Position numbers and translations under genes: made by a program | IMG/VR virus record: IMGVR_UViG_3300030090_003678 | Location: 56,945-76,944 of that record | Direction: 5' to 3' (one strand) | DNA length: 20,000 nucleotides | DNA from: an uncultured virus (IMG/VR IMGVR_UViG_3300030090_003678) | Lineage: Duplodnaviria > Heunggongvirae > Uroviricota > Caudoviricetes | Shown here: positions 416-20,000 of the stretch, one piece after another | Position numbering within the stretch: position 1 is the stretch's first letter | Layout: the number at the start of each line of letters is the position of its first letter | Notes under the pieces: model-generated | What the model was told of the DNA's origin: nothing | The model's input: only the letters and a program-made list of their open reading frames with translations | The model's database searches: none

Positions 416-419
416 TCCT
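416..419 (-). promoter_or_regulatory. Shine-Dalgarno-like AGGA overlapping the TAG stop of the giant gene
   Basis: The minus strand reads TAGGATTAAAAAAATG; AGGA is 8 nt upstream of the ATG at 407. Confidence 0.55.
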
Positions 420-3400
420 ATTCGTGTATGTTTACATGCATTATTGAATCGCCATGTGTTCCGTACCTAAGTTCCATATCTTCAAAGTGTGGTCCTAGAT
501 AATGGGTCCAGCATTTTTCTTCGCATTGATGAAAGTTTAATGGACCTCTCTCATTGCAACATATCTGATCGAAACCTAAATAGAAATCCATATTTACTGG
601 TTTATTGCTATTGCCTTGTCTGCAATTATTTACCGGAGGTGGATATCCAATAATAATATCAAATGCTCCTCCATGCCTACTCCAAACTGCTCTCCAGTGA
701 GGATCTGCATATTCATTAAACTTTTCATTTTCTGCTTGTGGAGCATAAATAACTCCTTTAAAGTTTCTAGGAGCTAAACCTATTCCGACTTCGTGACCCA
801 TTAACATAGCTTCTGGAGACGATAATTCTAAGAACTTTTCTTTTTGAGTTATCAAGTTTAATTTTCTATCGTCAGCTGAATTTGCTACAGGTTTTCCAAG
901 ATACTTCACAGTACCCTTTACAATCTTAGTACATTCAGCAGGAGTCCTTACGTTCAAGGTGTTTCCACTACTATCAATACAAACAAATTCATTTATTATT
1001 TGTGTATCAATGGATGCTCCAAGAGTTAATCCTGCTTCTCCACATTCTTTCTTTGTTTTTTGTATAACTGGCCCAATAAACACTCCTGTTGGGCCGCACT
1101 CAGATGCTGTAACGCTTTCGGTTACTTCATTGCCATCAACTAAGTATATACATGTTCCAGCTTGGTCGTCACTAACATCTCTACATTCTTTGTATGGTCG
1201 GATTGATTCACATGAATCGCTCATATCACAAAGCCTAGCCATCTCCAAACTTTCCTGAGAGTCGTCAGGAACATAACTATCATCAGCAGGGAAATAAAAT
1301 GGGAACTGTTGATCCAACGTATTCAAGTCAACACACGTATCAAACACACTTGAATACGTAACATCTCTAACAGAACCGCATGTGTTTATCCACACGCCTT
1401 TTACCCAATCATAACCTCTTGATGTACAGGCAGTTTCGTTATCAATTTCGTAAAGGGTGCAGAAGTGTTGCTCGCAACCAGCTTTCGTGTCTACTTCTGA
1501 TGGAGGATCAGTAACTTCACCATTTGTATCTTCCCATTTAGTACCTTGTGGGAATTCACAACTTCCTAATCTGCTAGCTAGACCTCCTTCAGTTATCTTC
1601 TCTCCTTCTCCAAAGAATCCAGCATCTTTAGTAACCGTCTTTAATTTTTGTGATGGGTCATATTCCCAATCGCTTGCTTTTCCAAATCTAGGAGCTGGTT
1701 TATTTGCTTCAAGATTGCTTCTTAATTGAGATGCGTCATGAACAACCAACTCTAATTCATCATGAAGCGCAAACCTCGTCGCTGCTGTTACTGGCTCCCA
1801 CCAATGCCAGCCATTTTCTTTGCAGTCTTCCTTGTTGTCATATTTTGCATTTTGACAACCACGCTTTCTTACAACATAACTACCATCAGCTGGACCTCTA
1901 GGACATCTCATTTCCCTCTGTTCGTTGCCTGAGTCATCTTCATATTTTATTTCTACGCACTCAAAACATTGTCCTAGAGGGTTAGTTTTACTAGGAGGTT
2001 GACATGGATCTTGCAAATAGAACCCATTAATTTGACAGCCGACAGGACATCCTTCTACAAAGAAATCTTTTGCGTCTCCAGTTTTTTGTCCACCACTAAT
2101 TTCTAATGGTTTTAGATTTAATGGATCTTTGTATTTATACCCATCTTTTTCATCGTTTCGTCTTCCAATTACCCAATCGCCACCAAATATTCTTTCGCAT
2201 AAGAATTTGTCTCCATCCATTCCTAATGGACTTTCTGGGTCTCCAGTGTCTTCATATAATTGAACCCATTCTCCATTAGTTTGAAATTCAGCTAATCCTC
2301 CGGGAGTTACAGGGTTTGGTATTCCTCCAAATCCAACTCTATCACATTCATTTTTATCAGTAATAGGATCGCCATTAGAGTCTGTTATTCCTGTGTTTGT
2401 TGCTACATCTACACAAGCTCCTTCAGAACACTCATTTATGTCCATTCTGCTTACGTTCATGCCATAACGGTCATCAACACAGTATCCCATTCTTGTACCT
2501 TTGCAGGTGGCGGGATAAACTACGCTACCACTAATAACAACTTTTTCTGCATCAGCTAGGTCGTGGTCGTAGTGTGTAGCCACTTCTGTGTGCGAAAAAT
2601 GTGGTATCCAGAGATGTCCATTTCCAACACATGTTGAGTTATTTTTGTATGTATTATTTGTACAGAAGTAATCTTCATCTGAATAGATATTTTCAAATGC
2701 ATTAATCATGACTGGCTCAACTGGCAGTATCTCTGGAATTGGAGTGGTCATTCCTCCACCAGTATCTACCTCTTTGTACCTAAACATTCTATTCAGATTA
2801 TCAACGGTTGGTTTCGGACCAATTCTTCCCGGCTGTGTTATAGAACCAGTTGGATCTGTCCTTAAACTTTCAACATTAGATGGTCCCATAGGAACACCCT
2901 TTGGCCACATTGACATGTGTCTGCTAAGAGAAGAATGTGTCTGGTGATCGACCGGCCATGGATTCAAACCATATGGTTGGGGAAGCTCTAAATTCTGCTT
3001 CATGTTCATATAGTCAAAAGTAGTAGCCGATACTGGATTGCCGTTTTGGGTTCTTGTCCTATCGTAAATTCTAAGATGTCTATTTTTTCTAGGATTTTTT
3101 GTGATTAGCTTCGATACATCAGCAACCCTAATTTCCATATACTGACCGCTTCCACGACCCGCATCTCCATCTTTGTCTGGAATATTATCCCCTCTTGGGA
3201 TATCTGTATAGAGTATAGTTCCTCCAGCAGGTAAATATGGATTCCTTGATTTATTACTTCTGGAATAACTGCCAAATGTATCCGTTTCTGCTTGTTGTAA
3301 TTCTGCTAATCCAATACCAATCGGTGTGCCTTTTTCATAAGCGCAATGTCTGCCCCCAAACGTAGGTGGATAAGCAGGTATAACTAAAGTAGCCTCTCCT

Positions 3401-6400
3401 GTTTCTGGATCAACATCTTTAACATACCGAACGGTAAATTGCTCTGCTGGCTTGTTTGGAATTGGGTCAAATCCATACGATTGACATCTGTGACTTATAT
3501 CGCCACCAGTAGAACAAGCAACACCGCCGCTCCACAAAGGAGCGCGAATTGGTGGACTTCCTCCGCCTGTTCTGAAGGGGTAGTCTATTCCAGTGTATGT
3601 ACAACATTCCGTATCAACACATGCCCCACTTGGGCCACAATCATTTTTGGATATACATCTTCCAGCAAAAGTATATCTTCTTTCTAACGCACTAGGCTTT
3701 CCTGTTTTTCTCCAAGAGTCTCCGGTAATCAACCGTTTTGGTAAACATCCAATTAACCCTCCAGTATCGCAAGGTGGCACTCCCGTTACGCCATCAGTTA
3801 CGTTGTCAACCCTTAGACTCTCAGACCCCAAAAAAGATGTAAATGTACAATTTGTTATTTCTGCCCAAATTTCTAAACCATTTTGTCTATAGTTGTCTCC
3901 TCCATTAGGTCCAAACCCACCATCAACTATATCACCACTGTTATAAGCCGCCATTGAAGGTATAGAATTTCCACAGCCCATTACTAATCTAATAAAGTGA
4001 CCATCTTGTGGCAGACTAGGAGGTCTTGCATTTCTGAATACTAGGTCTGAACTTAGGCCATCTACTCGCACTCCGCCATTCATTCCTCCATATTGAGGCA
4101 TATCACAAGCGTTGCAGTCGGCATTTATTGCTACTAACTCATCTCCTGCTTTGAATGACGTATAGGGGCTAAAGTCTAAATTTGGTCCAGTTGGTTGGCA
4201 AGCTGAAGGCCATTTGAATCTATGCAAGCCTAAATCACATTGATGTGTACCAACTGTGTTCATTAAAGTCCACTCAGATCTCCAAACAACGCCATCATAT
4301 TCCATAGGGACATCTAAAGACTGTAATCCCGGACAAGTTTCATCTACAGGTTCATGGCTATTTGTATGGTCAACACAAGTTTCATCTGCCTCTGTTTGTA
4401 TATGGAGACCATAACATCCTGTATATGCATCATTATCATATCCTTCATCTCCATTTCCATTAACGTGACAAGTACCATCTCCAATGTCTTCAACGACTTC
4501 GGGTTCATATTTCATCTCAACAAAATTTGGATAACAAGAGCAAGGATCAAATGCCCAAATATATGCAGACTCAGGTGCATCTGAAACTTTAGTACATGTC
4601 GCTGTCAATGCTGAAGTGATCTGAACTACTTCCCCTACATTTTGGTCACCACAATTTTTCTCTTCTATCCCTGAACATGATTTTGCTTCTTTACATGGCA
4701 AATATGGATGTGAACAATTTCCTATAATATCGTTGTTATTGTCAGACACTAACGCTTCACAATAGGCATCTGCACAACAATCAGTTTCTTTGCCGTCTTT
4801 GTCTACTCCTATGTATTGTACTTGTGTGTTTCCTGTTTGACTAACAGTCTTCGTTTTGGATCGAGAGGTATAAACTGATGAACATTTTCTACAATTAGTT
4901 CCCCCACCCATGGTAGGTCTTTTTCTTAAAAACATATTACACTCAGAAACACCACCAGAGTGCGTTAAAGGAGTAAACGTTTCATCTTTACCATCACAAC
5001 CCTTTTTCCTCCATTTGAGGGTTTTAATCCGTCCACCATCTTCTGTGCATGTTCCAAATGTAATGTCAACATTATTTGGGTCTGCTATATGTCTTCTGAA
5101 CTCATCTTCGCATTCTGGCAAATCTCTAAGATCGCAAGGATGAAAAGTATCAGAACAACAATAACCTTCATTTTTTAATGCTTTTGCCGCATTGAAACTT
5201 TGGCTATCATCAGCAGTAGGAGCTTCACATTCATCCATGCCGCAGCCAATATAGTCTAATATCTCGCTAGATTGGCCAGTAACAGTTGCAACTAACTTGT
5301 TTGGCATAAAGTGGTCACAGCAAACAGGACATATTCCTTTTTGTTCTATTTGAACATAGTAATCATTTGCTCTTTCTTCCCATTTATATCCCGGACCGCC
5401 GAAACCAAATCTATATAGACTATCTATTTCATCATCTTCGTAATGTCCAATATACCCACCTTCAACACCAATATCTTCGTGATGTCCCCAATAATCAAAC
5501 TCTCCGGTGAATGGACATGTTTTATAAACACCAACACTCGGTTTTCCTTTACCTGAAGTAAGTTCACTACCAAGATCCAGTATGCCTAAATCGCCATACC
5601 AAGCTTGCGACCAACATGTCTTGAAAGGATCGTCATTATTTAAATCAACACAATCTGCATATCTTCCTTCAATAAACGTAGCGCCTTTAAACTCAAATCC
5701 ACTTTCTTCACAATCGGATTTGTTGTTTATTCCACCAACTACATCGCCATCGTAGTCATAACATTTTCCTTTACTTTCACATGCCTCTTTTTGTTCTTCT
5801 GTAGTTCCAGAATGAAGATCTTTGTCATTTAAAAGTTTTGCGTCAGCATCTTGACATCTATTAACATAAAGCTGGTTTTTGTGGTCTACATCAACGCTAG
5901 GGTCGTACATGGTATATACTTGCGCGAGTGCATCACAATCTTCTTTTTTCATAAATGCATTGGCGTTTGACTCGTATCCTAGCACTACAGTACAAGTACC
6001 ATATAAAGCACAATTTATTTCTGCTTCATTATCTGCGGTCTTTTCGTCATCTTCAAAAGTGTCATAGTTTCTCCAAGAAGTCGTCCATCTCTCAGCAAAG
6101 TCCGTACAGTCTGCTTTACTTTTTGGATTTCCGTTTTCGTCTAATGCACCAGTTTTATCTATGGTGTTAAAACATATACCAAGAGCATCACAATCTGCTT
6201 CCGCACAAGCCTTTCCTCCATCAGATTGCGTTTTATAACAAGTATGTTCTTCGTCTATTGGAGCGCCTGAAGCTTCACTATTTGTTATGGTATCGCCTGT
6301 TGGAATATGAGTAGACTTTCCATTATTTTGGAATGAGAGCTTGCCGGTATATGTATCTAAACAACGAAATTGTGCAGGTTCTTGAGATGGTATTCCCTTA

Positions 6401-9400
6401 TTTTCTGCCAGCTTTTTAGTGATCCAATTGACTTGTTCAGGCGCTTCTGCTGCACCCATACCAAGTCGATAGTTCATAATACAACCTTCTTCAACTTCCT
6501 CTACACATTCAGTTGTATCAATATTTGCTTTGTTTATTATCCTTCCATCTACTGGATACTTGTCGCATGTATATAAGTCGAATGTGTCTAATGTTACATT
6601 TTTAATAACAAAGAAGTCAGCTGGTGGAGGAATTTCACCATTAATTATTTCACCGGAACAAGCGTAGTATTTACTATCGCAACTGAGTTCCCATGTACCT
6701 CCGCCGCCTTCCCATACTCCACCACATCCCGGAGGGCCATCTGCATCATCTTTTACACAACCACACTCTTCTCCCGGAGCTTTATCTTGATCAACAGTAA
6801 ATCCTGAAGGACAGTTCCCATCATCATCCTGCATCTTGCATATATCGGCATCAGCTTCGCAATCAGTCTTTCTGTCACATACTGTTCCATCTTCTCTTTT
6901 CTTTGAACATTTTCCATACTCACACTCTAACTTACTTCCTGCATCAGTTGATGCGTCCCATTTATAAACAGGTCCAAGACAGTCCTTTTTCTCTAGATCA
7001 ACTTCTGAGTCGTCAGACAGTCTAATACATTTGCCTTGAGAATCGTCTAGGCAAGCAGACGTATACGGACATATAGAATCTGGCCATACTAAGTTTTCAC
7101 AATTTGGTCCGTCGCACGGGCTGTAAAGTTTATCTTCCCATTGCATCTCTTGCCAATCCTTCTGGTACATAACATTGGCAGCAAAATTGCCCATGACATT
7201 GTAGGTATGTACCAAGTCTCCATCTTTTAGCAAATGGTTCCTTGAAGTAATTTTGATTGGTTTTTCGTTGCTGGCATATTGGATTCGTTTGTGTTGCTTG
7301 ATTCCTAAGCAGTGGTCATTGACATAGCTAGCCATTTCTCCCTTTGGGAATAGACCAGTATCGTGCCAGTAACTCATTGAGTTGCCGATATCGTTTCCTT
7401 CTGATCCAAGAATTCTTCTTGAATATCCTCCTCCTACTTTGTCACTAAAACCTTTCTTTATACTACTTGTATCAACAAGTCCACTTGTTGAAGGTCCAGA
7501 AGGTCTGGCTTTAATGATTCCTTCCAGCTCTCTTAGCGGATAGCTTGAATCAGAACCTCCAACGCTAGCACCAGTCCAAGTATTATCCCCATCTCTACCG
7601 TTACAAGCTTCTTCTGTCTCATAATCTTGGATTAATGTACCGTCTTCTAGCAGACATTGACCTAGCTTTTTCCCTAATACGATATCTACGAAAGCTTCAG
7701 GTACTGGTTGAACTTGAGGACATTCTTGGTTTTCTGCAAGAGCAATGCCTGCTGGAGAACATCCGTCATTCCAATTTCCTTCAGCCCCTCCTTCATCCAT
7801 AGGCTTTACGCACTCTGCTTCGGTTTTTGCCTCTTCCCATATGGGAGTAGCTTGTTTTTCTACAACATCTTTGAAGTTTACTAGCTTTCTGCGATCACAT
7901 CCTTCAAACCATTCACAACAAATGTTGAAGTCTCCTCCTGAAGCTGCGCAATCTTCTGGCGTAGCGTGTTCAAAACTTCCATCAGCTGCAACACAAGAGC
8001 CTGTTTTTCCACAACTTGCTTTAGTTTGCTCTTCACATTCAGGGCAAGAAAGGTTATTCGTCCAGCCATCGAATGGAACCCAACCAACCCACATAGCACC
8101 ATTACCATAGCCGCAATCACCTCTTCTCAAGAAACCCACATGATCATCAACATATTTTTTAGCTTTTGTGGCTACTTCATTACAAAAGCCATCATATTTT
8201 TTTACTGCGATAGGACCCGGACCTGTAGTCATTTCATCCCATGCCATGAAATCATAATACATGAAATAATCTGGACCATAATTCCAGAACCAAGTACCAC
8301 CACCAGCCATATGCCCTAATACATAAGCAGTACATGCTTGCCAATATTTATGATGTGCAGCAGCTTGATCAGGGCCTTTAGCTCTATTTTGTTTTTCTTC
8401 CGTCGCTTTGAATGGTTGAGGTTGTATGTTGAACCCATAGAATGCATCAGCTCCTTTGGCATTCATCAACTCGCCAAAGTATTCTCCTTTGTTACTATTG
8501 TAGTAATGATACGCTTGACATTGATCCTTACCACCATCCGCAATACCATCATAGTTTGCATCAGGATAGGCGCACCAATGCTGATGTTGTATGCCTTCTA
8601 TAGCATCTCCCGGAAAATATCCTATTGGGCCTTTCATCGCAAGCGGAGGAGCAGATCCACCAGCGCCTTTTTGAAAAAGCTCATTTACTGGGTTGCCCAT
8701 TTGGTCTCCCATTTTAGGGTCCCACAAAGGCTGAGATTCTGGCCAACCAGAACGAAGCTGAGATTCTTTTCCGAGAGTTAGATTAAAGTTAGAACAATTC
8801 ATAAACTGATCTACAGGCAAAAAGAGCATCACCTCTTCTCCACATGTAGTATCAAAATAATTGTCTTGTTGTCCCTTTATATCGTATGGGTCTGGTCTAG
8901 GAACACCTTTTTCTAAGCAAGCACCCCAAAAGTTACAGGGACGTATTGTAAGAGTCCAATAGCTTTCACCATCTAAATGGAATAGAACTCTATCATTTTG
9001 GTTTCCTACTGATGTGCAAGTACCTTCTGCGCCAGTTTGCGGAGCGTTGCTTCCAGTAATAGTAGAAGGCGAAAGAATCACCTCTGAATAAGGAGTTATA
9101 CAAACAGTATTTTTTCTTGTGTTTGCTGCTCCACCAGATATTTGCGGAGTGTGAAAAGGATGATCTTCATCTAATAAAGTTTGTCCACAACAAGACTGGC
9201 GTTCATATTCCCAATCAACAAAATCGTAAGGAATGAAAACATTTGGATGCTTCCAAATCCTTTCGTCGATTTCAAGACATTCTTCTTCTGTAGCAACATC
9301 TCCTTCCCAAACATCGCCAAACGCACCACTATAACAACCAGCGTATACTTCTTCCCCAGAATAAAGAACACAATTTTCTTGAGTTTCATAATGCCAATCA

Positions 9401-10692
9401 TGAGTGTGGTGAAATCTAACTTCACAATCATATTGATTTAATGCGGGAAACTTTGTAGGAGTCCCATTGCTTGTTGTTGGTCTCTTAAGACATGCTGGTT
9501 CTATGAGCTGATCTCTAACTGTAGGCTCACCATCTTTAGGAGAATAACAAAGACCTCTTAAGGTACATTCTTCTTTATCATCAAGAAGCCAAGTTGCACC
9601 AGAACTTTCACAAGTAGATTCATCTTTATCAGGGTTAGTACAAAAGGCTTCAACTTCAGTAGCATCAAATGGATGTCTACACCAAGGCTCTTTCTTTAAA
9701 GGTACAGCCCCATCTTCAAAGCAAGCGCTTTCTTTATTTGCTCCAGATCCATGGACTGCATTGTAAGAGCTATGAGCATAATACCCTTCAGGAGTAACGA
9801 ATATTCTACGTTCTCTTGCTTTTATATTTATTAGTGCGTCAGCTTTATTTTCAGAGAAGTGTGTTTTTTGTAGGTTTGTCCCTTTTAGGTCTACTAATCT
9901 TTGTCCAGCTCTGTCTTCTACATTGTTATTTGTGACATTTGGATCATTCTCACTCCAAAGACCATTTATATCTATACAGTCGTCTTCTGTAGTTATCCCA
10001 TAATTAGGGACTCCATTTACATCCCAGCAAATAGGTCTTTCTCCATCTCTGACGGATGAATTCAGCATGTCTGTTCCGCCACCGGGAAGCATTACGCCAT
10101 AGACTTCTGGTATCATCCAAGCATCAGCACCTCTTCTAGGCCAGTTATCTCCTTGTAGCGCTTTGTCGTAATCGAAATCATCTCTTACTTGAAATCCATC
10201 TCCTACTTGTTTATCAGAATCAAGTGTCACATATTTATTGTTTGCGTAATGGCACTCAGAAGGTTTGCCATTAGGAAGAGTAGTTACCTTACATGGATCA
10301 CAAGCATAACTTAATGTATCAGTCGCTGTTTGACTACAACATCTGCTACCTCTCCAAGCGCCATTAGAATATTTAAGATGGTAGGTTTCTCCTGCTCCAC
10401 CTTCTATTCCTGCACGAGCTTGATATCTTCCATCAGGAGTTCTAATAATAGTAACAGCTATTTCTGGAGGTAGCTGACATTTTGCTCCAGCTAGGTTGTC
10501 GCAATAAGTGTCTATACAGCCACAGCCCTCAGTGCAAAAACGACCGCCTCTCCTATCTTTCAAAGATAGAGGGTCGTCCTGAGCTGTATCATCAGAAGCG
10601 TCTGGCCACCAAGATTTCTTGCCAGTTCTTTGATTTCTTAGGTTTGGATAATAGGGATTATAGGAGGAATCCCAAGGATCACCAATTGCCAT
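418..10692 (-). CDS. Giant (3424 aa) cysteine-rich, acidic putative virion appendage/tail-fibre-like protein with two interrupted E1-FCCH-like domains and many nested two-Cys modules
   Basis: 10.3-kb uninterrupted ORF. The ATG overlaps the upstream TAA (TAATG, 10690-10694), with AGGA 5 nt upstream; TAG stop at 418-420. No signal peptide or obvious TM segment. Lies downstream of the hub-like gene. The ORF is secure; the product is inferred. Confidence 0.9.
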   Translation of the reverse strand: MAIGDPWDSSYNPYYPNLRNQRTGKKSWWPDASDDTAQDDPLSLKDRRGGRFCTEGCGCIDTYCDNLAGAKCQLPPEIAVTIIRTPDGRYQARAGIEGGAGETYHLKYSNGAWRGSRCCSQTATDTLSYACDPCKVTTLPNGKPSECHYANNKYVTLDSDKQVGDGFQVRDDFDYDKALQGDNWPRRGADAWMIPEVYGVMLPGGGTDMLNSSVRDGERPICWDVNGVPNYGITTEDDCIDINGLWSENDPNVTNNNVEDRAGQRLVDLKGTNLQKTHFSENKADALINIKARERRIFVTPEGYYAHSSYNAVHGSGANKESACFEDGAVPLKKEPWCRHPFDATEVEAFCTNPDKDESTCESSGATWLLDDKEECTLRGLCYSPKDGEPTVRDQLIEPACLKRPTTSNGTPTKFPALNQYDCEVRFHHTHDWHYETQENCVLYSGEEVYAGCYSGAFGDVWEGDVATEEECLEIDERIWKHPNVFIPYDFVDWEYERQSCCGQTLLDEDHPFHTPQISGGAANTRKNTVCITPYSEVILSPSTITGSNAPQTGAEGTCTSVGNQNDRVLFHLDGESYWTLTIRPCNFWGACLEKGVPRPDPYDIKGQQDNYFDTTCGEEVMLFLPVDQFMNCSNFNLTLGKESQLRSGWPESQPLWDPKMGDQMGNPVNELFQKGAGGSAPPLAMKGPIGYFPGDAIEGIQHQHWCAYPDANYDGIADGGKDQCQAYHYYNSNKGEYFGELMNAKGADAFYGFNIQPQPFKATEEKQNRAKGPDQAAAHHKYWQACTAYVLGHMAGGGTWFWNYGPDYFMYYDFMAWDEMTTGPGPIAVKKYDGFCNEVATKAKKYVDDHVGFLRRGDCGYGNGAMWVGWVPFDGWTNNLSCPECEEQTKASCGKTGSCVAADGSFEHATPEDCAASGGDFNICCEWFEGCDRRKLVNFKDVVEKQATPIWEEAKTEAECVKPMDEGGAEGNWNDGCSPAGIALAENQECPQVQPVPEAFVDIVLGKKLGQCLLEDGTLIQDYETEEACNGRDGDNTWTGASVGGSDSSYPLRELEGIIKARPSGPSTSGLVDTSSIKKGFSDKVGGGYSRRILGSEGNDIGNSMSYWHDTGLFPKGEMASYVNDHCLGIKQHKRIQYASNEKPIKITSRNHLLKDGDLVHTYNVMGNFAANVMYQKDWQEMQWEDKLYSPCDGPNCENLVWPDSICPYTSACLDDSQGKCIRLSDDSEVDLEKKDCLGPVYKWDASTDAGSKLECEYGKCSKKREDGTVCDRKTDCEADADICKMQDDDGNCPSGFTVDQDKAPGEECGCVKDDADGPPGCGGVWEGGGGTWELSCDSKYYACSGEIINGEIPPPADFFVIKNVTLDTFDLYTCDKYPVDGRIINKANIDTTECVEEVEEGCIMNYRLGMGAAEAPEQVNWITKKLAENKGIPSQEPAQFRCLDTYTGKLSFQNNGKSTHIPTGDTITNSEASGAPIDEEHTCYKTQSDGGKACAEADCDALGICFNTIDKTGALDENGNPKSKADCTDFAERWTTSWRNYDTFEDDEKTADNEAEINCALYGTCTVVLGYESNANAFMKKEDCDALAQVYTMYDPSVDVDHKNQLYVNRCQDADAKLLNDKDLHSGTTEEQKEACESKGKCYDYDGDVVGGINNKSDCEESGFEFKGATFIEGRYADCVDLNNDDPFKTCWSQAWYGDLGILDLGSELTSGKGKPSVGVYKTCPFTGEFDYWGHHEDIGVEGGYIGHYEDDEIDSLYRFGFGGPGYKWEERANDYYVQIEQKGICPVCCDHFMPNKLVATVTGQSSEILDYIGCGMDECEAPTADDSQSFNAAKALKNEGYCCSDTFHPCDLRDLPECEDEFRRHIADPNNVDITFGTCTEDGGRIKTLKWRKKGCDGKDETFTPLTHSGGVSECNMFLRKRPTMGGGTNCRKCSSVYTSRSKTKTVSQTGNTQVQYIGVDKDGKETDCCADAYCEALVSDNNNDIIGNCSHPYLPCKEAKSCSGIEEKNCGDQNVGEVVQITSALTATCTKVSDAPESAYIWAFDPCSCYPNFVEMKYEPEVVEDIGDGTCHVNGNGDEGYDNDAYTGCYGLHIQTEADETCVDHTNSHEPVDETCPGLQSLDVPMEYDGVVWRSEWTLMNTVGTHQCDLGLHRFKWPSACQPTGPNLDFSPYTSFKAGDELVAINADCNACDMPQYGGMNGGVRVDGLSSDLVFRNARPPSLPQDGHFIRLVMGCGNSIPSMAAYNSGDIVDGGFGPNGGDNYRQNGLEIWAEITNCTFTSFLGSESLRVDNVTDGVTGVPPCDTGGLIGCLPKRLITGDSWRKTGKPSALERRYTFAGRCISKNDCGPSGACVDTECCTYTGIDYPFRTGGGSPPIRAPLWSGGVACSTGGDISHRCQSYGFDPIPNKPAEQFTVRYVKDVDPETGEATLVIPAYPPTFGGRHCAYEKGTPIGIGLAELQQAETDTFGSYSRSNKSRNPYLPAGGTILYTDIPRGDNIPDKDGDAGRGSGQYMEIRVADVSKLITKNPRKNRHLRIYDRTRTQNGNPVSATTFDYMNMKQNLELPQPYGLNPWPVDHQTHSSLSRHMSMWPKGVPMGPSNVESLRTDPTGSITQPGRIGPKPTVDNLNRMFRYKEVDTGGGMTTPIPEILPVEPVMINAFENIYSDEDYFCTNNTYKNNSTCVGNGHLWIPHFSHTEVATHYDHDLADAEKVVISGSVVYPATCKGTRMGYCVDDRYGMNVSRMDINECSEGACVDVATNTGITDSNGDPITDKNECDRVGFGGIPNPVTPGGLAEFQTNGEWVQLYEDTGDPESPLGMDGDKFLCERIFGGDWVIGRRNDEKDGYKYKDPLNLKPLEISGGQKTGDAKDFFVEGCPVGCQINGFYLQDPCQPPSKTNPLGQCFECVEIKYEDDSGNEQREMRCPRGPADGSYVVRKRGCQNAKYDNKEDCKENGWHWWEPVTAATRFALHDELELVVHDASQLRSNLEANKPAPRFGKASDWEYDPSQKLKTVTKDAGFFGEGEKITEGGLASRLGSCEFPQGTKWEDTNGEVTDPPSEVDTKAGCEQHFCTLYEIDNETACTSRGYDWVKGVWINTCGSVRDVTYSSVFDTCVDLNTLDQQFPFYFPADDSYVPDDSQESLEMARLCDMSDSCESIRPYKECRDVSDDQAGTCIYLVDGNEVTESVTASECGPTGVFIGPVIQKTKKECGEAGLTLGASIDTQIINEFVCIDSSGNTLNVRTPAECTKIVKGTVKYLGKPVANSADDRKLNLITQKEKFLELSSPEAMLMGHEVGIGLAPRNFKGVIYAPQAENEKFNEYADPHWRAVWSRHGGAFDIIIGYPPPVNNCRQGNSNKPVNMDFYLGFDQICCNERGPLNFHQCEEKCWTHYLGPHFEDMELRYGTHGDSIMHVNIHE
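1765..2706 (-). other. E1-FCCH-like beta domain 2, split by three Cys-rich insertions
   Basis: The segments INAFEN / HTEVATHYDHDLADAEKVVISGS / ADGSYVVRK / VTAATRFAL occur in canonical order, separated by inserts at 2667-2608, about 2514-1897 and 1860-1801. Confidence 0.55.
6571..7284 (-). other. E1-FCCH-like beta domain 1, split by a 185-aa Cys-rich insertion
   Basis: The N-half IQYASNEKPIKITSRNHLLKDGDLVHTYNVMGNFAAN (7284-7174) and C-half DFFVIKNVTLDTFDLY (6618-6571) join into the familiar I..ASN..PI.IT...HGL..GD.V.I..V.GN..ANG.F.I..VT.DTF.L pattern of FCCH-like domains (Pfam E1_FCCH-like) in phage proteins. Confidence 0.7.
6958..7035 (-). repeat. 26-codon module, copy A (GKCIRLSDDSEVDLEKKDCLGPVYKW) in the 3424-aa gene
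   Basis: Ungapped 18/26 aa and 54/78 nt identity (hand count) to 15857-15934. Confidence 0.85.
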
Positions 10693-15500: not shown

Positions 15501-18397
15501 CAATTGATACACCAAGGTCGCCATTTATATTGTTTCAGATCCCCAGCTTTCTTTACGGCGCAGTCGGAGTCTGGTGGATTTACTTCTGGTCTAGGATCAC
15601 ATTCGCAAATAAACTTTAAGTTTTCATAATCTTCATTAGCTTGTCCTGTAGCTAATTCCTCACAGATTCCTAAAGACGGATTAAAAAACTCAATCCCACT
15701 AAAAATACCTTCAGTAGGGTGAAAGTCTCTATAAGGATCATCATCATTGAAAAATCCCTTGATTGGATTTCCTCTAACGCTTAGATCAACAATGTCGTTA
15801 TAAACATTGTCTGCTGCAATTGACTGAGGATCTGCTGGAGTCCAACTCCCTACAACCCATTTGTAAGTAGGACCAAGACAACTGTCTTTTTCTACGTCTA
15901 CTACTGAGTCATCGGCAGTCTTGATACATTTTCCATTTTCTTCTTTTTCACATTCCTCTTGTGTCTTAAGACCTCCCTCAGAACATGAACCTTGTGCAAC
16001 AGCACCACCTTTAACAAGCTCTATGGTTTCATATCCCCAGCATGGATATAGATCTAGATAGCCTGAGTCTGTGGAGTGTTTTTTTGTCCAAATTCCAGAT
16101 GCGTCAAGGCATAGTTTCTCAGTATCAGGATACTCCCAATTACCTCCTTTATCTGCGCATTCTGTAGCATTAGTTGGTCCAGCTACAACTTCTGGATCTT
16201 TTTTTGGAGGGCTAATTTTTAAACATGCTTTTACATCACAATCACCTGCATTAAGCTGATGCTTTGAGTTGAGTCTATTTAACTGATAGGGATTAAATCC
16301 ACCATCTTGTTTGAAATCTTGTGGCCAATACCAAGGCAAATAATTATCATTGCTTACAGGAGGCAAATTTCTTTCAAAGTCTGGGTAGTCTAGCGTCTCT
16401 TTGTCCGAGTATATTCCTTGTTTTCCATAAGGATTCCATCTCAACTTATTACTGTCTGAAGGAAACTCATCTTTAGGGAATTCTTGATTTATAAGAGTAA
16501 CGCCATCATCTTCAACGTGTGGCAAGAACTCTGTTAAAATCGAGTCTACTCCTTCTGTTGGTGCTGGATCTTCATCAGTTACATCTTCAGTTGTCCAGAC
16601 ATGATTTGCTTGAGCTTCGCAATCAGCTTTATTTGTATAGGAAGGAGCCTTATCTCCATTACCATCTACACAATAAGATTCAGTGTTTGTTTTATCAAAA
16701 TACTTTCCAGTAGTTTGATTGTAGAAAGTATCTTTTCTTACATTGACATCTCCTAAAGGTGTAACACCAATGACTCTTGTTCTAGGCGCACCAAGGACCA
16801 TCTTGCCTTCAATAGGATCTGTAAATTCATAACCTAAGTTGGCACTTACTAAAGTTGGGTTATTTTGATTATCTACAAAAGGCCCTTCTGGAGGTGTCTT
16901 TTGTGACAGATCAACTGCATCCCCAATAGAACCACGAGTGATTGTTGTCGTTCTTGGGATAGGAACAACTTTTATGATTCCAGAATAATTTTTAACATCC
17001 GGCCATTCTTCAGGTTCAATAAACCCATCTTTGATTAGATTTTTGGTTATAGGGCTTAATGTTACATAAAAATCAGCTCCTACAACCGCGCAAGCTTCTT
17101 CTATTAAAGATAAAAGGCTTGCTGTATCTCCAGAGATTCTCCAATCATTTGGTATCAAACCTTCTTCGTCTCCTGAAGACGAAGATGAACTAGAACTTGC
17201 TATATCTGAAGACTTAGAACTGAACTTAAAAAAATCAGTTAGGTCAACTAGATATCTATGTATATGCCAGCTTTCTGGATTGCCATCTTCATCTAATTTT
17301 ACTGCGCCTGCTTCGTCTTTTATAGATGCGGAGTTTAATATGCTTTGAGATGGATTTACATTTCTAGTGTCTCTGCTGTAGTGTAAGGGTCCGCCAAATG
17401 GTTCAAATTCTTCAATGTAATTCGTGTCTTTGCCACTTAACATATTTGCAAGTGCGCCCAAAATACCAAAAGCATGTTTTCTTTTTGGTGCTTGCTTATC
17501 TTCGTCAAGACTTGGGTTGTAATCTCCAAACTTGTTAATGAATTGTTTATTTGGATTATTCCAAATCATTCCGGCTTCTGTAATATCAGATTTGTTAAAC
17601 CCGTGATATTCGTAGTACCCAAACACATTTATTATGTTGTAATACCCATTCCATCCTTTTTCGTATTCTCTTCCTGAATCTTCGATTCTATACGCATCAG
17701 CAGGAGATGTTCTTGCAGCAAATTTGTTAAGTACAACGATTGTATTTTCGAGTATTGATCTTGGGTCTGCAATTTCTACCGTGTAGGTTTCTCCAGCAGT
17801 TGAAAACTTTTTATCGTACTTTGTTAAAATTCCCGGAAAAGAGAACACAGTGTTACAAGTAAGAGCGCCATCTTTTAAGACTCCATCATCATCATAATCT
17901 CTTTTTACGCAGTCTTGTATTAAGTCTCTTCCGCTGTAGTAATTAAAAAAGACAGGAGATCCCGGATCAGGAATAAAAGGAATGTCTCCATGAGTGGAGT
18001 AGAGTTTTCCCATTCCTTTATCTGGATCTGATGGGTTGTCTTCGTTCTCTAGATTGTGCAATCTTAAAAGATCAATAGGAAACGCATTAGGATCATTAGG
18101 GTGATAACCTTCAGAAACGGCATCTCTAGTACCAGAGGGAGTTAAGTAAGTTTCAAAATTAACTTCGTCTCTTACTAAATTAACGCTAAGACTAGAACTG
18201 TTACTACCCAAGCCTAAATTTGCAGAAAAATCCATAATCGACAAACCTAAGAAAGTTTGCTGAAAGATTTCTGGATTATTAACATAGTCAGTTATTGCTG
18301 AGGCGTATTTGTCCCAAGACCCACCATTAGCTGTACAATCAGCCTCATTTTTATACTGAGGTTTGCTACATTTATTTACATCTTTATTAGGAGCCAT
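12518..18397 (-). CDS. Large (1959 aa) putative baseplate hub / tail-tip protein expanded by Cys-module insertions
   Basis: Long ORF, TAATG-coupled to the upstream gene, ending in a double stop TAA TAG. The N-terminal beta pattern (SIMDFSANLGLGSNSSSLSVNLV...FPGILTKYDKKFSTAGETYTVEIADPRSIL), the helical SLLSLIEEACAVVGADFYV and the C-terminal TGSIELVGIPAYAFGTQL...YITDVSLRVGSNGLTTSYSF resemble the layout of gp27/GpD/Tal-type hub proteins. It ends in a coiled-coil-like tail. The family call is by-eye pattern recognition. Confidence 0.85.
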   Translation of the reverse strand: MAPNKDVNKCSKPQYKNEADCTANGGSWDKYASAITDYVNNPEIFQQTFLGLSIMDFSANLGLGSNSSSLSVNLVRDEVNFETYLTPSGTRDAVSEGYHPNDPNAFPIDLLRLHNLENEDNPSDPDKGMGKLYSTHGDIPFIPDPGSPVFFNYYSGRDLIQDCVKRDYDDDGVLKDGALTCNTVFSFPGILTKYDKKFSTAGETYTVEIADPRSILENTIVVLNKFAARTSPADAYRIEDSGREYEKGWNGYYNIINVFGYYEYHGFNKSDITEAGMIWNNPNKQFINKFGDYNPSLDEDKQAPKRKHAFGILGALANMLSGKDTNYIEEFEPFGGPLHYSRDTRNVNPSQSILNSASIKDEAGAVKLDEDGNPESWHIHRYLVDLTDFFKFSSKSSDIASSSSSSSSGDEEGLIPNDWRISGDTASLLSLIEEACAVVGADFYVTLSPITKNLIKDGFIEPEEWPDVKNYSGIIKVVPIPRTTTITRGSIGDAVDLSQKTPPEGPFVDNQNNPTLVSANLGYEFTDPIEGKMVLGAPRTRVIGVTPLGDVNVRKDTFYNQTTGKYFDKTNTESYCVDGNGDKAPSYTNKADCEAQANHVWTTEDVTDEDPAPTEGVDSILTEFLPHVEDDGVTLINQEFPKDEFPSDSNKLRWNPYGKQGIYSDKETLDYPDFERNLPPVSNDNYLPWYWPQDFKQDGGFNPYQLNRLNSKHQLNAGDCDVKACLKISPPKKDPEVVAGPTNATECADKGGNWEYPDTEKLCLDASGIWTKKHSTDSGYLDLYPCWGYETIELVKGGAVAQGSCSEGGLKTQEECEKEENGKCIKTADDSVVDVEKDSCLGPTYKWVVGSWTPADPQSIAADNVYNDIVDLSVRGNPIKGFFNDDDPYRDFHPTEGIFSGIEFFNPSLGICEELATGQANEDYENLKFICECDPRPEVNPPDSDCAVKKAGDLKQYKWRPWCINWGACRDKNNVDISSKMHEDIVGPENNVGENAWACQHACFAEDGNGDPQGSAIVAYYAKDFKEGGFEKKAGEAATFNDPKWEVNTESGFIKFVGSPADCTDSGNLLATPEARSSFEIDANGDALPSGFDPADMNQFESGGSLYSPGCKAVSYRNPFDSRCEATEDIENDKGKVLFHKGDWTDAATPRDCKTKYPGKAEWTLVSTFDYGPQFTDDFTGRVIESKDNPAPGYTQPRIRLKGVCRQVRDSDGEKQDPKDPPNNEDIETERDCYDQDNGGSQNEVHYKPVDLNTGIGLPLVCRTSTIPIDLGNTPYKGGPKSSINDPAKRYDEFYYATVTELRHAAQSIDSWKIFVKTLQPYMPCWFYEKTPEPSNAWGDLCPAKDEVVIHGGKSQTTLEAAKVLVAWGNSSPPPMASTGITDESNADTEEAQSISGFVCGDKPRTTSLTLFQATSMEIEMVYKKIKDVADNFYGKKYLVPLPFNPPSTVHCTNPKYEDQTQCEDAGFDWGVHGLLSEWFAKQGIGRCTDGVSPDKYTCEIIAREKWIEPIQEINRWEIATNGAWPGGDIEFNFGTPDSKNANTGYPQNMNFWTEEGNLKSFVIFPEKDYRRATQDSKILDFRDFDAETMHVEPVSKVGPDDNWGKKVFVAAEVDAKTHWLKERPDWEIHHEEQYFRYRCGDDAKVDGSSIDHAASEEYLKIGSEIDGTQTELKTRPVYIRENEIDNTGSEQTNEFAAYKPYALVTLANRAFYPDIDMAHPLMNSCGGNKNEMCLPLTKGGNSNFLLGAWLNGLLPQGVTAQQLIAMQARSKYAPNLGPDMGKGSFVAAAYKPWHAAIPQQSKHYRWGPWAAGLEAYGKTEFSTDDGLHPAAFGGETQMGDVAMSRIETVIGQSENRVIETGSIELVGIPAYAFGTQLTYFDSSGEEIKGPYITDVSLRVGSNGLTTSYSFSTQRKFGDLGKLYEDRIRKSQSDIMQRLSRAEEQMERVKRGIGQYQKD
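15857..15934 (-). repeat. 26-codon module, copy B (GKCIKTADDSVVDVEKDSCLGPTYKW) in the 1959-aa gene
   Basis: Ungapped 18/26 aa and 54/78 nt identity (hand count) to 6958-7035. Confidence 0.85.
17174..17197 (-). repeat. Poly-serine (S8) low-complexity tract in the 1959-aa protein
   Basis: ...SSKSSDIASSSSSSSSGDEEG..., encoded by mixed AGT/TCT/TCA/TCG codons. Confidence 0.8.
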
Positions 18398-18399
18398 TA
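18395..18399 (-). promoter_or_regulatory. TAATG stop/start overlap (translational coupling)
   Basis: TAA at 18399-18397 shares one base with the ATG at 18397-18395. Confidence 0.65.
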
Positions 18400-20000
18400 C
18401 ATTTCTTGTCCCGAATAAGGTTGGTCTTTCTTATCGTCTTGATCTGGATTAACTACGCCATTGACTTTATCTACATAATCATCAGTAGGAAATGCCCACG
18501 GGTCATTAATTTCATAAATCCAACTTAAATTATATGACCAAGTACCAGTAACTGGATTCCAACTTTCACTAGGAGGATTTAAAAATCTTTTTCTTACCCT
18601 CTTAGGAGGAGTATTTCCAGTAAGAGTGTATTTACTATGGTCTATAGTTGTTAAATAGCTTGCAGGATCAAAAGAATCAATCAGCTTCTTAATAGCATTT
18701 GCTTGGATTAACCTAGTGTCTTTTTTAAGTAATCCACCAAGTGGATTGCCGGTCGTAGTAGAAATAATGTCATTTCCCGGTTTAGCAAGAATAAGCTCAT
18801 GAGTAAAATCATCATTACCAAGAGCAACTGCTATGTCAGCAAAGTTAGGGTTTTCTATCCACGATGCTGCCACTCCAAATTCATCCACAGTTGCATTACA
18901 AGTAGCTTTGTCTTTTGGTGCTGCCAAGTATTGATTATTACTATCAACACATATTTCATAATGTCCAGTATCAAATGTTGCGCTTATGCTTAGGTCTCTT
19001 TGCCATTGTGTTTGTGTATTTATTCCTTGTAGTACAGGACCTAACCTTCTCCCTAATACAACATGGGAAGCAACTACTTGTCCCGGATAAGTGTCGTTTA
19101 CTGACCAGTCTTCTGACTTGCAATAAGGAATCCAATGATACTCAGCAACTCTGCCTTCGTAAGATAAGTTGAAAGTTATCGTTCCATTTGCCGGTTGGCT
19201 TGTTACGCTCTTATTAGCTAATGTAGGAGATATTGTATAAGCGGCATATTCTGGAAGCTCCTTAACTATCATCGCTGCTGAACGATGCATAAATGGCATT
19301 ATTTTGCTGTAATGACTTAACGCTCTTCCGTATTTAGTATTTGAATTAGCTTGGTCTCTGTCGTAATTTTCTTTTACATTTAAAACATCGTCAGGATCTC
19401 TGTCTTGATTATCTTTATCACCCACGCCAGCATCATCTGCATTATCGACAAGCCCTTCAATTGATCCGTTTATACTAACGGTAACTTTGCCTTCACTATC
19501 TTCAGAAACTTGTACATCTAATGTTTCAGTAGCTTCGATTTCTCCATCGGCAGGATCAATATAAGGAGCTAATATCCAAGTTTCGACAACGCTAAATTGT
19601 CCTGATCTAATATCTACATTTTGTATTCTTTTGTAGTTATAAGCTTTATAGTTATCATAAGCACCGACAGCATTATTTCCGGGAACAGGAAGATTCATAC
19701 CAAAGAGATGCACATCATCATCATCTGCGGCAAGAGCTACAAGATTGTTATGTATTCCTCCCGTGTACTCAGTGTCGTCAGCTCCTCCAGCGTTTGCGCT
19801 AACTTGGTTATTAAATCCGTCATAACCAAACAAGAACCTGTTACCATACTTGATAATGTCGTAAACAAATCCCCTAGCTTGCTGCCAAGCCTTGCCTCCA
19901 TTTTTATAATTCGTGCTGTATAGATCAGCTTTATATCCTCCAACAGAAGTTGAACTATTAAATTCACTTTTTCCTGTAGCGCTAATATTTCTTGTTAGCA
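18397..20000 (-). CDS. Hypothetical phage tail/baseplate protein, partial (5' end outside the window; >534 aa)
   Basis: The ORF track starts it at a TTG at 19833, but the frame has no stop up to the window edge (...LTRNISATGKSEFNSSTSVGGYKADLYSTNYKNGGKAWQQARGFVYDIIKYGNRF-LFGYDG...), so the true start is upstream. It is rich in alternating beta-strand patterns (GKVTVSINGSIEG, GTITFNLSYE, GTWSYNLSWIYE) and has one two-Cys module at 18859-18954. Confidence 0.85.
   Translation of the reverse strand, partial: LTRNISATGKSEFNSSTSVGGYKADLYSTNYKNGGKAWQQARGFVYDIIKYGNRFLFGYDGFNNQVSANAGGADDTEYTGGIHNNLVALAADDDDVHLFGMNLPVPGNNAVGAYDNYKAYNYKRIQNVDIRSGQFSVVETWILAPYIDPADGEIEATETLDVQVSEDSEGKVTVSINGSIEGLVDNADDAGVGDKDNQDRDPDDVLNVKENYDRDQANSNTKYGRALSHYSKIMPFMHRSAAMIVKELPEYAAYTISPTLANKSVTSQPANGTITFNLSYEGRVAEYHWIPYCKSEDWSVNDTYPGQVVASHVVLGRRLGPVLQGINTQTQWQRDLSISATFDTGHYEICVDSNNQYLAAPKDKATCNATVDEFGVAASWIENPNFADIAVALGNDDFTHELILAKPGNDIISTTTGNPLGGLLKKDTRLIQANAIKKLIDSFDPASYLTTIDHSKYTLTGNTPPKRVRKRFLNPPSESWNPVTGTWSYNLSWIYEINDPWAFPTDDYVDKVNGVVNPDQDDKKDQPYSGQEM

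Follow-up and report, generated by a model that had tools for sequence, protein, structure and literature searches.

A cluster of small, probably nested two-cysteine units in a giant tail protein of an uncultured phage

The giant open reading frame and its five-unit region

The DNA analyzed here (the window) is a stretch of 20,000 nucleotides that forms the last 20 kb of a 76.9-kb virus contig from IMG/VR (IMGVR_UViG_3300030090_003678), which is rated 51% complete. It contains a giant open reading frame (ORF; P0001) on the minus strand at 418-10692, which encodes 3,424 residues including 165 cysteines (4.8%). The subject of this work is a region of the same strand at 9211-9684, which encodes residues 337-494 of the giant protein and has 10 cysteines in 158 residues (6.3%). 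The conservation profile places it within a variable, poorly conserved stretch (approximately residues 200-500) that is flanked by conserved scaffold segments at residues 1-200 and 500-900. A preliminary description had drawn the region as five cysteine-containing modules nested on three levels. Translation of the minus strand gave exactly the 158 residues of that drawing (WCRHPF...IPYDFVDW), and the drawn unit boundaries translate as written; the plus-strand frame across 9211-9684 has many stops. We consider it likely that one small insertable mini-domain is present in five clustered copies at residues 337-494, some of which are inserted in the loops of others.

The unit consists of a first cysteine, 8-24 residues, a polar or acidic run with a second cysteine, and a tryptophan 5-7 residues later, for a total of 20-35 residues. 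Its first cysteine lies in a short strand, often preceded by G-x, and this is the case for C338, C351, C382, C401, and C453 according to a structural model and the typing of head contexts. Its second cysteine lies in a short helix after (T/D/K)-x-(E/D)-x-C, and the model and the typing of tail contexts place C361, C376, C423, C441, and C472 in this class. A tryptophan (or a phenylalanine or tyrosine) in a strand 5-7 residues after the second cysteine, expected where no further unit intervenes, is present in units 2, 4, and 5 (W368, W433, and W480); the aromatic candidates for units 1 and 3 are far downstream (F491 and F486), or for unit 3 also Y444 or Y450. There are two length classes, a short form C-x10-C-x6-W (consensus CT...YkNk.DCe.aGh.W) and long forms.

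The pattern C-x8-24-C-x5-7-W occurs nine times in the giant protein compared with 2.66 ± 1.56 times in shuffled sequences, and none of 500 shuffles reached nine. A neighboring protein of 1,959 residues has seven matches compared with 0.53 in its shuffles, of which 0 of 500 reached seven. With a stricter unit pattern, five and four matches were obtained in these two giants and none in the 18,858 residues of the contig's other ORFs. The unit is real, beyond what chance would give, and it is uncatalogued, being in none of the family libraries searched. Pfam searches with single units gave only a weak match to PF22670 and Trefoil at an expectation value (E) of 1.1, and the unit profiles A1 and A2 returned from the PDB either nothing or chance matches to a filovirus glycoprotein at E 0.23-0.28. 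A hidden Markov model (HMM) of the unit with variable loops was too diffuse to parse the sequence. The giant protein and its neighbors have no family match in Pfam, PHROGs, or NCBIfam; P0001, P0003, and P0004 have none among PDB sequences, and neither do the neighbor profiles A5 and A6. In the literature searched, we found neither this unit described nor any nesting of cysteine units in the tails of phages.

Database searches returned homologues of 3,004-4,202 residues, plus some fragments, which are mostly uncultured metagenome sequences and are denoted here by P numbers. Their comparison, together with an AlphaFold2 model of residues 316-534, defines the parts of the region, all of which are on the minus strand. 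Unit 1 starts with the head PWCRHPFDATEVE (9649-9687), whose C338 is in a strand of the model; PWCR is found here in 18 of 19 proteins, and PHCK in P0019. Unit 2, AFCTNPDKDESTCESSGATW (9589-9648; C351-C361-W368), has the short form and occupies the inter-Cys loop of unit 1. This block is absent in P0020, where the second half of unit 1, LLDDKEECTLR (9556-9588; C376, in a helix), is contiguous with the head. The head of unit 3, GLCYSPKDGEPTVRDQLIE (9499-9555), carries C382 in a strand, and C382 and C441 are lost jointly in P0020. Unit 4, PACLKRP...YDCEVRFHHTHDW (9394-9498; C401-C423-W433), lies in the inter-Cys loop of unit 3, and both of its cysteines are absent in 3 of the 14 aligned rows (P0010, P0015, and P0020). 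The second half of unit 3, HYETQENCVLYSGEEVY (9343-9393), has C441 in a helix and Y444 and Y450 in short strands of the model. Unit 5, AGCYSGAFG...TEEECLEIDERIW (9253-9342; C453-C472-W480), has the canonical long form and is followed at 9220-9252 by the trailing aromatic segments KHPNVF (F486) and IPYDF (F491), both strands in the model; the W480-F486-F491 spacing (6 and 5 residues) is kept in relatives. Invariant scaffold cysteines stand on both sides of the nest. C324 (9721-9723) lies just before it and is invariant in 14 of 14 rows; C501 and C502 (9187-9192) and C531 (9100-9102) lie just after it (9100-9192), where the predicted local distance difference test score (pLDDT) of the model is <50.

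Evidence from cysteine typing, the model, and relatives

Weight matrices for the contexts of first and second cysteines were derived from 125 simple units outside the region and outside the giant protein. Applied to the ten cysteines of the region, they gave head, head, tail, tail, head, head, tail, tail, head, tail, which is the type required by the nested parse in all ten cases. Such a string of typed brackets places the pair 351-361 inside 338-376 and the pair 401-423 inside 382-441, followed by 453-472. Outside residues 337-494, bracket typing of the whole protein was unbalanced and unreliable.

The AlphaFold2 model had a mean pLDDT of 70.5 and a predicted template modeling score of 0.64; the means of ten-residue blocks over 336-495 were 65-90, and those of the flanks were <50. 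It placed each of the five head cysteines in a strand and each of the five tail cysteines in a helix; W368, W433, W480, F486, and F491 also fell in strands. The five units with their heads and tails, as first drawn, are thus upheld by both the typing and the model. Foldseek searches with the model gave a best E of 1.9 against the PDB and 0.29 against BFVD, and the ESM Atlas held no usable match for the region or for P0004.

A tblastn search with residues 1-997 against 50,697 phage records gave no match, and none to a cultured phage, and residues 300-530 matched only nine of 1.84 billion representative proteins. Searching for the locus by the upstream gene gave none, and searching by A3 gave six loci with no new lineages; further protein searches added only the P0014 clade. 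The motifs P-W-C-R and W-E-Y-E-R-x-S-C-C were used as anchors of the nest, and 19 proteins have both. Between the anchors, the length ranges from 71 to 340 residues and the number of units from 2 to 13, and the number of cysteines is even in all 19 proteins: 4 (n=1), 8 (n=2), 10 (n=5), 12 (n=9), 22 (n=1), and 26 (n=1).

Whole cassettes are present or absent among these homologues. In P0020, WCRNPIYGTRVKIQDKSEC is uninterrupted (WCR...DKSEC, C-x16-C) and corresponds to unit 1 without unit 2; this protein lacks C351 and C361 as well as C382, C401, C423, and C441, keeps C338, C376, C453, and C472, and is also without units 3 and 4, with a retained unit-5-like copy. In P0010 and P0015, only C401 and C423 are missing, jointly, and unit 3 is uninterrupted. 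These uninterrupted outer units give good support to two insertions that the preliminary description had proposed, that of unit 2 between the two cysteines of unit 1 and that of unit 4 between the two cysteines of unit 3. Conversely, P0012 and P0013 have an extra complete unit in the first loop of unit 2, and P0014, P0017, P0018, P0007, and P0019 have one between C361 and W368, with the W-L-Y-G-D continuation kept. These natural deletions and insertions identify the inner units as cassettes and show that both insertion positions are used in the family.

The parity of the cysteine counts was compared over the whole protein, using 14 full-length homologues that were aligned and cut at 72 conserved anchor runs, which left 23 intervals that vary in cysteine count. 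In 9 of the 23, parity is common to all 14 homologues despite wide ranges of counts. Examples with odd counts are 155-332 (1, 3, or 5 cysteines), 1189-1359 (5-17), and 1798-1920 (9-17), and examples with even counts are 337-490 (4-26), 811-868 (2-26), and 1379-1759 (6-18). Where two homologues had unequal counts, the difference was even in 695 comparisons and odd in 373, in rows that are related, so that the trials are not independent. Judging from these counts, there is a clear tendency for cysteines to be gained and lost two at a time.

Depth of nesting and pairing of the cysteines

We propose that the mini-domain begins with a strand that carries the first cysteine and continues, in some copies through a hairpin, into a short helix that carries the second cysteine, a turn, and a strand with a tryptophan or another aromatic residue. 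A single disulfide linking the strand cysteine to the helix cysteine very probably staples it. Comparison with the relatives shows that unit 2 sits within unit 1 and unit 4 within unit 3; units 3 and 5 may in turn be inserted in units 1 and 3, respectively, at the turn that leads from the helix to the closing strand. Units come and go as whole two-cysteine cassettes, giving the 2 to 13 copies at this spot. The cluster could be a rigid, branched structure hardened by oxidation that decorates the surface of the tail tip; it would differ in size and surface between related phages and may contact the host envelope.

Several points weigh against this reading. The same typing is balanced in only 5 of 15 homologues, which exceeds the approximately 1-12% per string that chance would give but reveals frequent mis-typing. 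A loose, greedy excision parser also accepted 324-338 and 441-453, and it performed no better than on reversed or shuffled sequence. Only 14 sequences stood behind the model, which was read as secondary structure, and the disulfides are putative. In the parity comparison, 14 of the 23 variable intervals are not parity-uniform, and the gap-based parity of insertions and deletions on the automatic alignment was the same as the control.

One rival has no nesting at all. Neighboring cysteines would pair as 324-338, 351-361, 376-382, 401-423, 441-453, and 472-501, and the region would be a plain series of tandem disulfide loops. The loose pattern parser does accept 324-338 and 441-453 as units, and cysteine parity alone is compatible with this pairing, even in P0020. 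However, neighbor pairing requires C338, C382, and C453 to be second-type and C376, C441, and C472 to be first-type cysteines, which the typing contradicts for all six of these discriminating residues, as does their placement in strands or helices of the model. In addition, AGC...TEEEC...IW is a canonical unit, and the complete units inserted in P0012/13 and in P0014/17/18 would force every downstream cysteine to change its partner. We therefore regard plain neighbor pairing as very improbable. It is also improbable, to a somewhat lesser degree, that the cysteines are not disulfide-bonded in the virion, being free thiols or metal ligands in units held by their aromatic core alone. This may also be so for the single copies in gp8 and gp10 of T4, since the cytoplasm in which these proteins are made is reducing. 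Among the cysteines of gp10, Cys555 is given as the only one conserved in T4-like phages in a T4 tail review (PMC3004832), so that the pair of the T4 copy is dispensable. No thiol oxidase was found, in an Erv1 search that was uninformative because its control matched nowhere. Against this, cysteines are gained and lost in pairs, two per unit are insufficient for a zinc site, and the particles would be in oxic sea water, judging from the gene content of the contig. In addition, cysteine makes up 4.8% of the giant protein, whereas the structural proteins of the disulfide-rich phage Milano have 2.1% and all T4 proteins taken together 0.9%.

With disulfide-stapled, nested units as the preferred reading, the depth of nesting remains to be considered. 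Nesting to two levels is well supported, and two is the depth given by the disulfide brackets alone; a third level requires that unit 3 be closed by F486 and unit 1 by F491. In the full three-level binary tree of the preliminary description, unit 3, with units 4 and 5, would lie in the post-Cys loop of unit 1, and unit 5 in that of unit 3. These two placements are only plausible, and we see the balance as tilted slightly against the tree as a whole. Each of the two insertion positions is used in the family, the post-Cys position by the unit between C361 and W368 in relatives, and the tree would use both at two successive levels.

In favor of the tree, there is no aromatic residue between C376 and the next unit head, and the model has strands at both trailing segments, VFIP and DFV. 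The W480-F486-F491 spacing (6, 5) matches a recurrent "W-x4-W" ladder after nested units elsewhere. Among units with a cysteine at most 11 residues before them, a second tryptophan at +4 to +6 occurs in 13 of 63 compared with 3 of 103 otherwise (Fisher p = 2.7e-4), several of these cases being homologous positions; this excess also supports post-Cys insertion in the family generally. P0020, which lacks unit 3, has a serine at the position of F486, and relatives do have units inserted in the post-Cys loop of unit 2. On the other side, Y444 (Y or F at +3/+4 in most relatives) and Y450 are in short strands and could close unit 3 themselves. P0013 has a proline at the F486 position and yet keeps unit 3, and no relative lacks unit 5 while having unit 3. 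The segment from F491 to W494 is part of an invariant scaffold motif, so that comparison cannot assign F491 to unit 1. Finally, "KHPNV" is also present in an un-nested paralogue of unit 5, which favors a tandem reading; unit 5 may be either a tandem copy after unit 3 or an insert within the post-Cys loop of unit 3.

This paralogue is the un-nested unit at residues 219-253 (9934-10038, minus strand), the closest relative of unit 5 within the giant protein, to which it is linked by the DNA repeat families D1/D2. The protein alignment of the two units scored 42, a value reached by 4 of 2,000 shuffles, with the next best unit at 27, and the similarity extends through "W..PNV". These two short, adjacent DNA repeat families, which have the same spacing (696 and 699 nucleotides), link 9239-9293 and 9935-9992 (residues 466-486 and 233-253). 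The resemblance suggests a duplication or conversion inside the gene. A short tandem repeat is also present in the N-terminal part of the giant gene at 10174-10209 (period 18, 2.1 copies, 89% matches).

Another possible three-level nest was seen by eye at residues 2730-2840 (window 2173-2505), so the claim of the deepest nest may not be unique to residues 337-494. In its layout, C2730...C2832-ERIFGGDW surrounds C2738...C2755, and C2760...C2783 lies in the post-Cys stretch of the latter.

At the outer edge of the five-unit region, C324 may bridge the whole nest to C501, C502, or C531. If the four invariant cysteines pair among themselves, the odd cysteine count in the preceding interval would make C324 span the nest. 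A bolder reading, which we think rather unlikely, is that marine phage tails in general use the unit as a self-inserting "disulfide staple". The region would then be a branched tree of at least three levels which, with C324 as an outer bracket, has four nested covalent brackets, and changes of cassettes would resize and resurface a host-facing tip with the scaffold fold undisturbed.

Tail-tip context and comparison with known systems

The genes upstream of the giant gene in the same orientation are an ORF of 604 residues, the ORF of 1,959 residues in which the units recur, and a gene truncated where the contig ends. The second of these encodes the neighboring tail protein P0003 (12518-18397, minus strand), in which one of the two-Cys units is nested (GSC...EEC EKEEN, then GKC...YKW, then VVGSW). 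The gene order of the relative G001 places this cluster in a tail-tip context: a tape measure gene (PF10145, E 2e-28; PHROG tape measure, E 3.7e-27) is followed in the same orientation by genes for a 960-residue Laminin_G_3 protein, for proteins of 759, 1,819, and 596 residues, and then for the giant. Identity between the 759-, 1,819-, and 596-residue proteins and the products of the three upstream genes of the window is 37%, 37%, and 64%, respectively; the contig of the window ends inside the gene cluster. A tail fiber gene with an S74 chaperone domain lies further upstream in G001. No sheath family was found in the records of five relatives, all of which are partial. In G001, the homologue of the giant gene lies downstream of the tape-measure gene of a long-tailed phage.

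Two observations concern the units of the neighboring proteins. The 759-residue homologue (L013:6259-8538, corresponding to window 18397-19998) has a two-Cys unit, ACYDRV...TCAEAGGIW, which the window protein lacks at that place, and the unit also moves among other tail proteins. Some units of P0003, for example, those at residues 576-601 and the nested pair near 805-852, are absent from its 37%-identical homologue (L013:8538-13997).

The giant protein also differs from some relatives in its middle part. P0011, P0012, and P0019 have a Peptidase_M23 domain (PF01551) mid-protein (E 7e-10, 1e-9, and 1.2e-5); P0001 has no Pfam match, that of PF01551 with its catalytic His-x-His part included. Residues 1288-1392 of P0001 (window 6517-6831) are 53% identical to the segment of P0012 just before Peptidase_M23, and from this comparison the lytic M23 domain seems to have been lost or replaced in P0001.

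Scans for DNA tandem repeats, promoters or terminators, and transfer RNA genes gave nothing relevant. Elsewhere on the contig there are genes for ribonucleotide reductase, PhoH, RecA-like and DnaB-like proteins, a DNA polymerase III alpha that is split, and numerous enzymes of sugar modification. The polymerase is formed by two ORFs, one with the PHP and NTPase part and the other with the finger part (L003:14498-16408 and L003:18025-19611), and genes for an RNase T-like exonuclease and a methyltransferase lie between them. The set of sugar-modifying genes, at approximately 5-9 kb and 40-53 kb of the contig (L002, L004), is unusually large and comprises at least seven ORFs with glycosyltransferase-family matches (several GT1, one GT2), four NAD-dependent epimerases/dehydratases, and one cytidylyltransferase; a DUF1501 protein and an M19 dipeptidase are encoded beside them. 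These genes might have a role in the glycosylation of the virion or of the DNA.

If the nesting and the disulfides are true, the unit would be the smallest recursively self-inserted unit known to us and a natural example of a protein surface enlarged in discrete, covalently stapled steps. It would partly explain the size and the very high cysteine content of giant tail proteins in uncultured marine phages, give annotators a unit missing from Pfam, PHROGs, and NCBIfam, and point to variable spots possibly bearing on host recognition. No description of cassette addition or deletion as a route to resizing a tail tip was found in the literature searched. A staple of 20 residues that can be inserted and that offers two permissive loops would, if true, also be a useful scaffold in protein design.

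The fold of the unit could be quickly checked because copies of it in phage T4 have been solved. The closest known element is a single C-x10-C-x3-GG-x-W segment in each of two baseplate wedge proteins of T4, gp8 (at residues 139-162) and gp10 (at residues 328-351), full-length chains of which are in the PDB (gp8, 1N7Z and others; gp10, 5HX2, 5IV5, and others). The Cys-Cys-Trp spacing is that of the short form in the window (unit 2 and similar units), and both are proteins of the distal tail. The strict pattern matched only gp8 and gp10 among 1,413 six-frame ORFs of T4 (121,755 residues), and none of 300 shuffles had any match; an hhalign comparison of seven window units selected the gp8 and gp10 segments (P 0.014 and 0.0033). 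All sequence statistics of the link are weak: the unit HMM ranked gp8 second at E 3.8, and PDB profile searches with A1 and A2 missed gp8. The gp10 copy lies in PF22670 (Gp10_D3), and one of eight simple window units matched positions 64-84 of this family with 13.6 bits (E 0.081). This falls short of the family's curated cut-off of 27 bits over its 122 positions; the family has no match in the whole contig, and the resemblance is to one sub-element and not to the whole domain. T4 also differs in that each protein has one un-nested copy inside a larger domain. The relevant passages of the T4 tail review (PMC3004832) do not mention the element.

Recursive insertion itself has a precedent in Si3 of the cyanobacterial RNA polymerase beta' subunit, where sandwich-barrel hybrid motifs are self-inserted at up to six levels (PMC13114784, PMC10895346). 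As in the region described here, a small domain with adjacent ends is inserted into the loops of its own copies, giving branching trees of the type A1-B1-C-B2-A2 and copy numbers that depend on the lineage (PMC13114784). Si3 belongs to a cytoplasmic enzyme, in contrast with a 20-35-residue unit, probably with one disulfide, in a virion protein. The units of Si3 are beta-sandwich domains of far greater size and are not known to contain disulfides. No relation in sequence or fold was found between Si3 and the unit.

Nesting of extracellular domains over three levels together with a disulfide is known from integrin beta, in which the beta-I domain lies inside the hybrid domain and this inside the PSI domain, and a long-range disulfide bridges the interrupted outer domain. 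The integrin domains are of three unrelated types in a eukaryotic receptor and not one self-inserted unit, and they have no sequence relation to the phage unit.

For cysteine-rich, disulfide-stabilized phage tail proteins, the precedent is Agrobacterium phage Milano, whose tail and baseplate have many intra- and inter-chain disulfides, with cysteine at 1.4% overall and 2.1% in structural proteins (PMC10811340). As described there, the cysteines of Milano are scattered in ordinary tail folds and not placed in a repeated insertable unit. Compared with these systems, what is new here is the uncatalogued unit, and the architectural principle of recursive self-insertion was already known.

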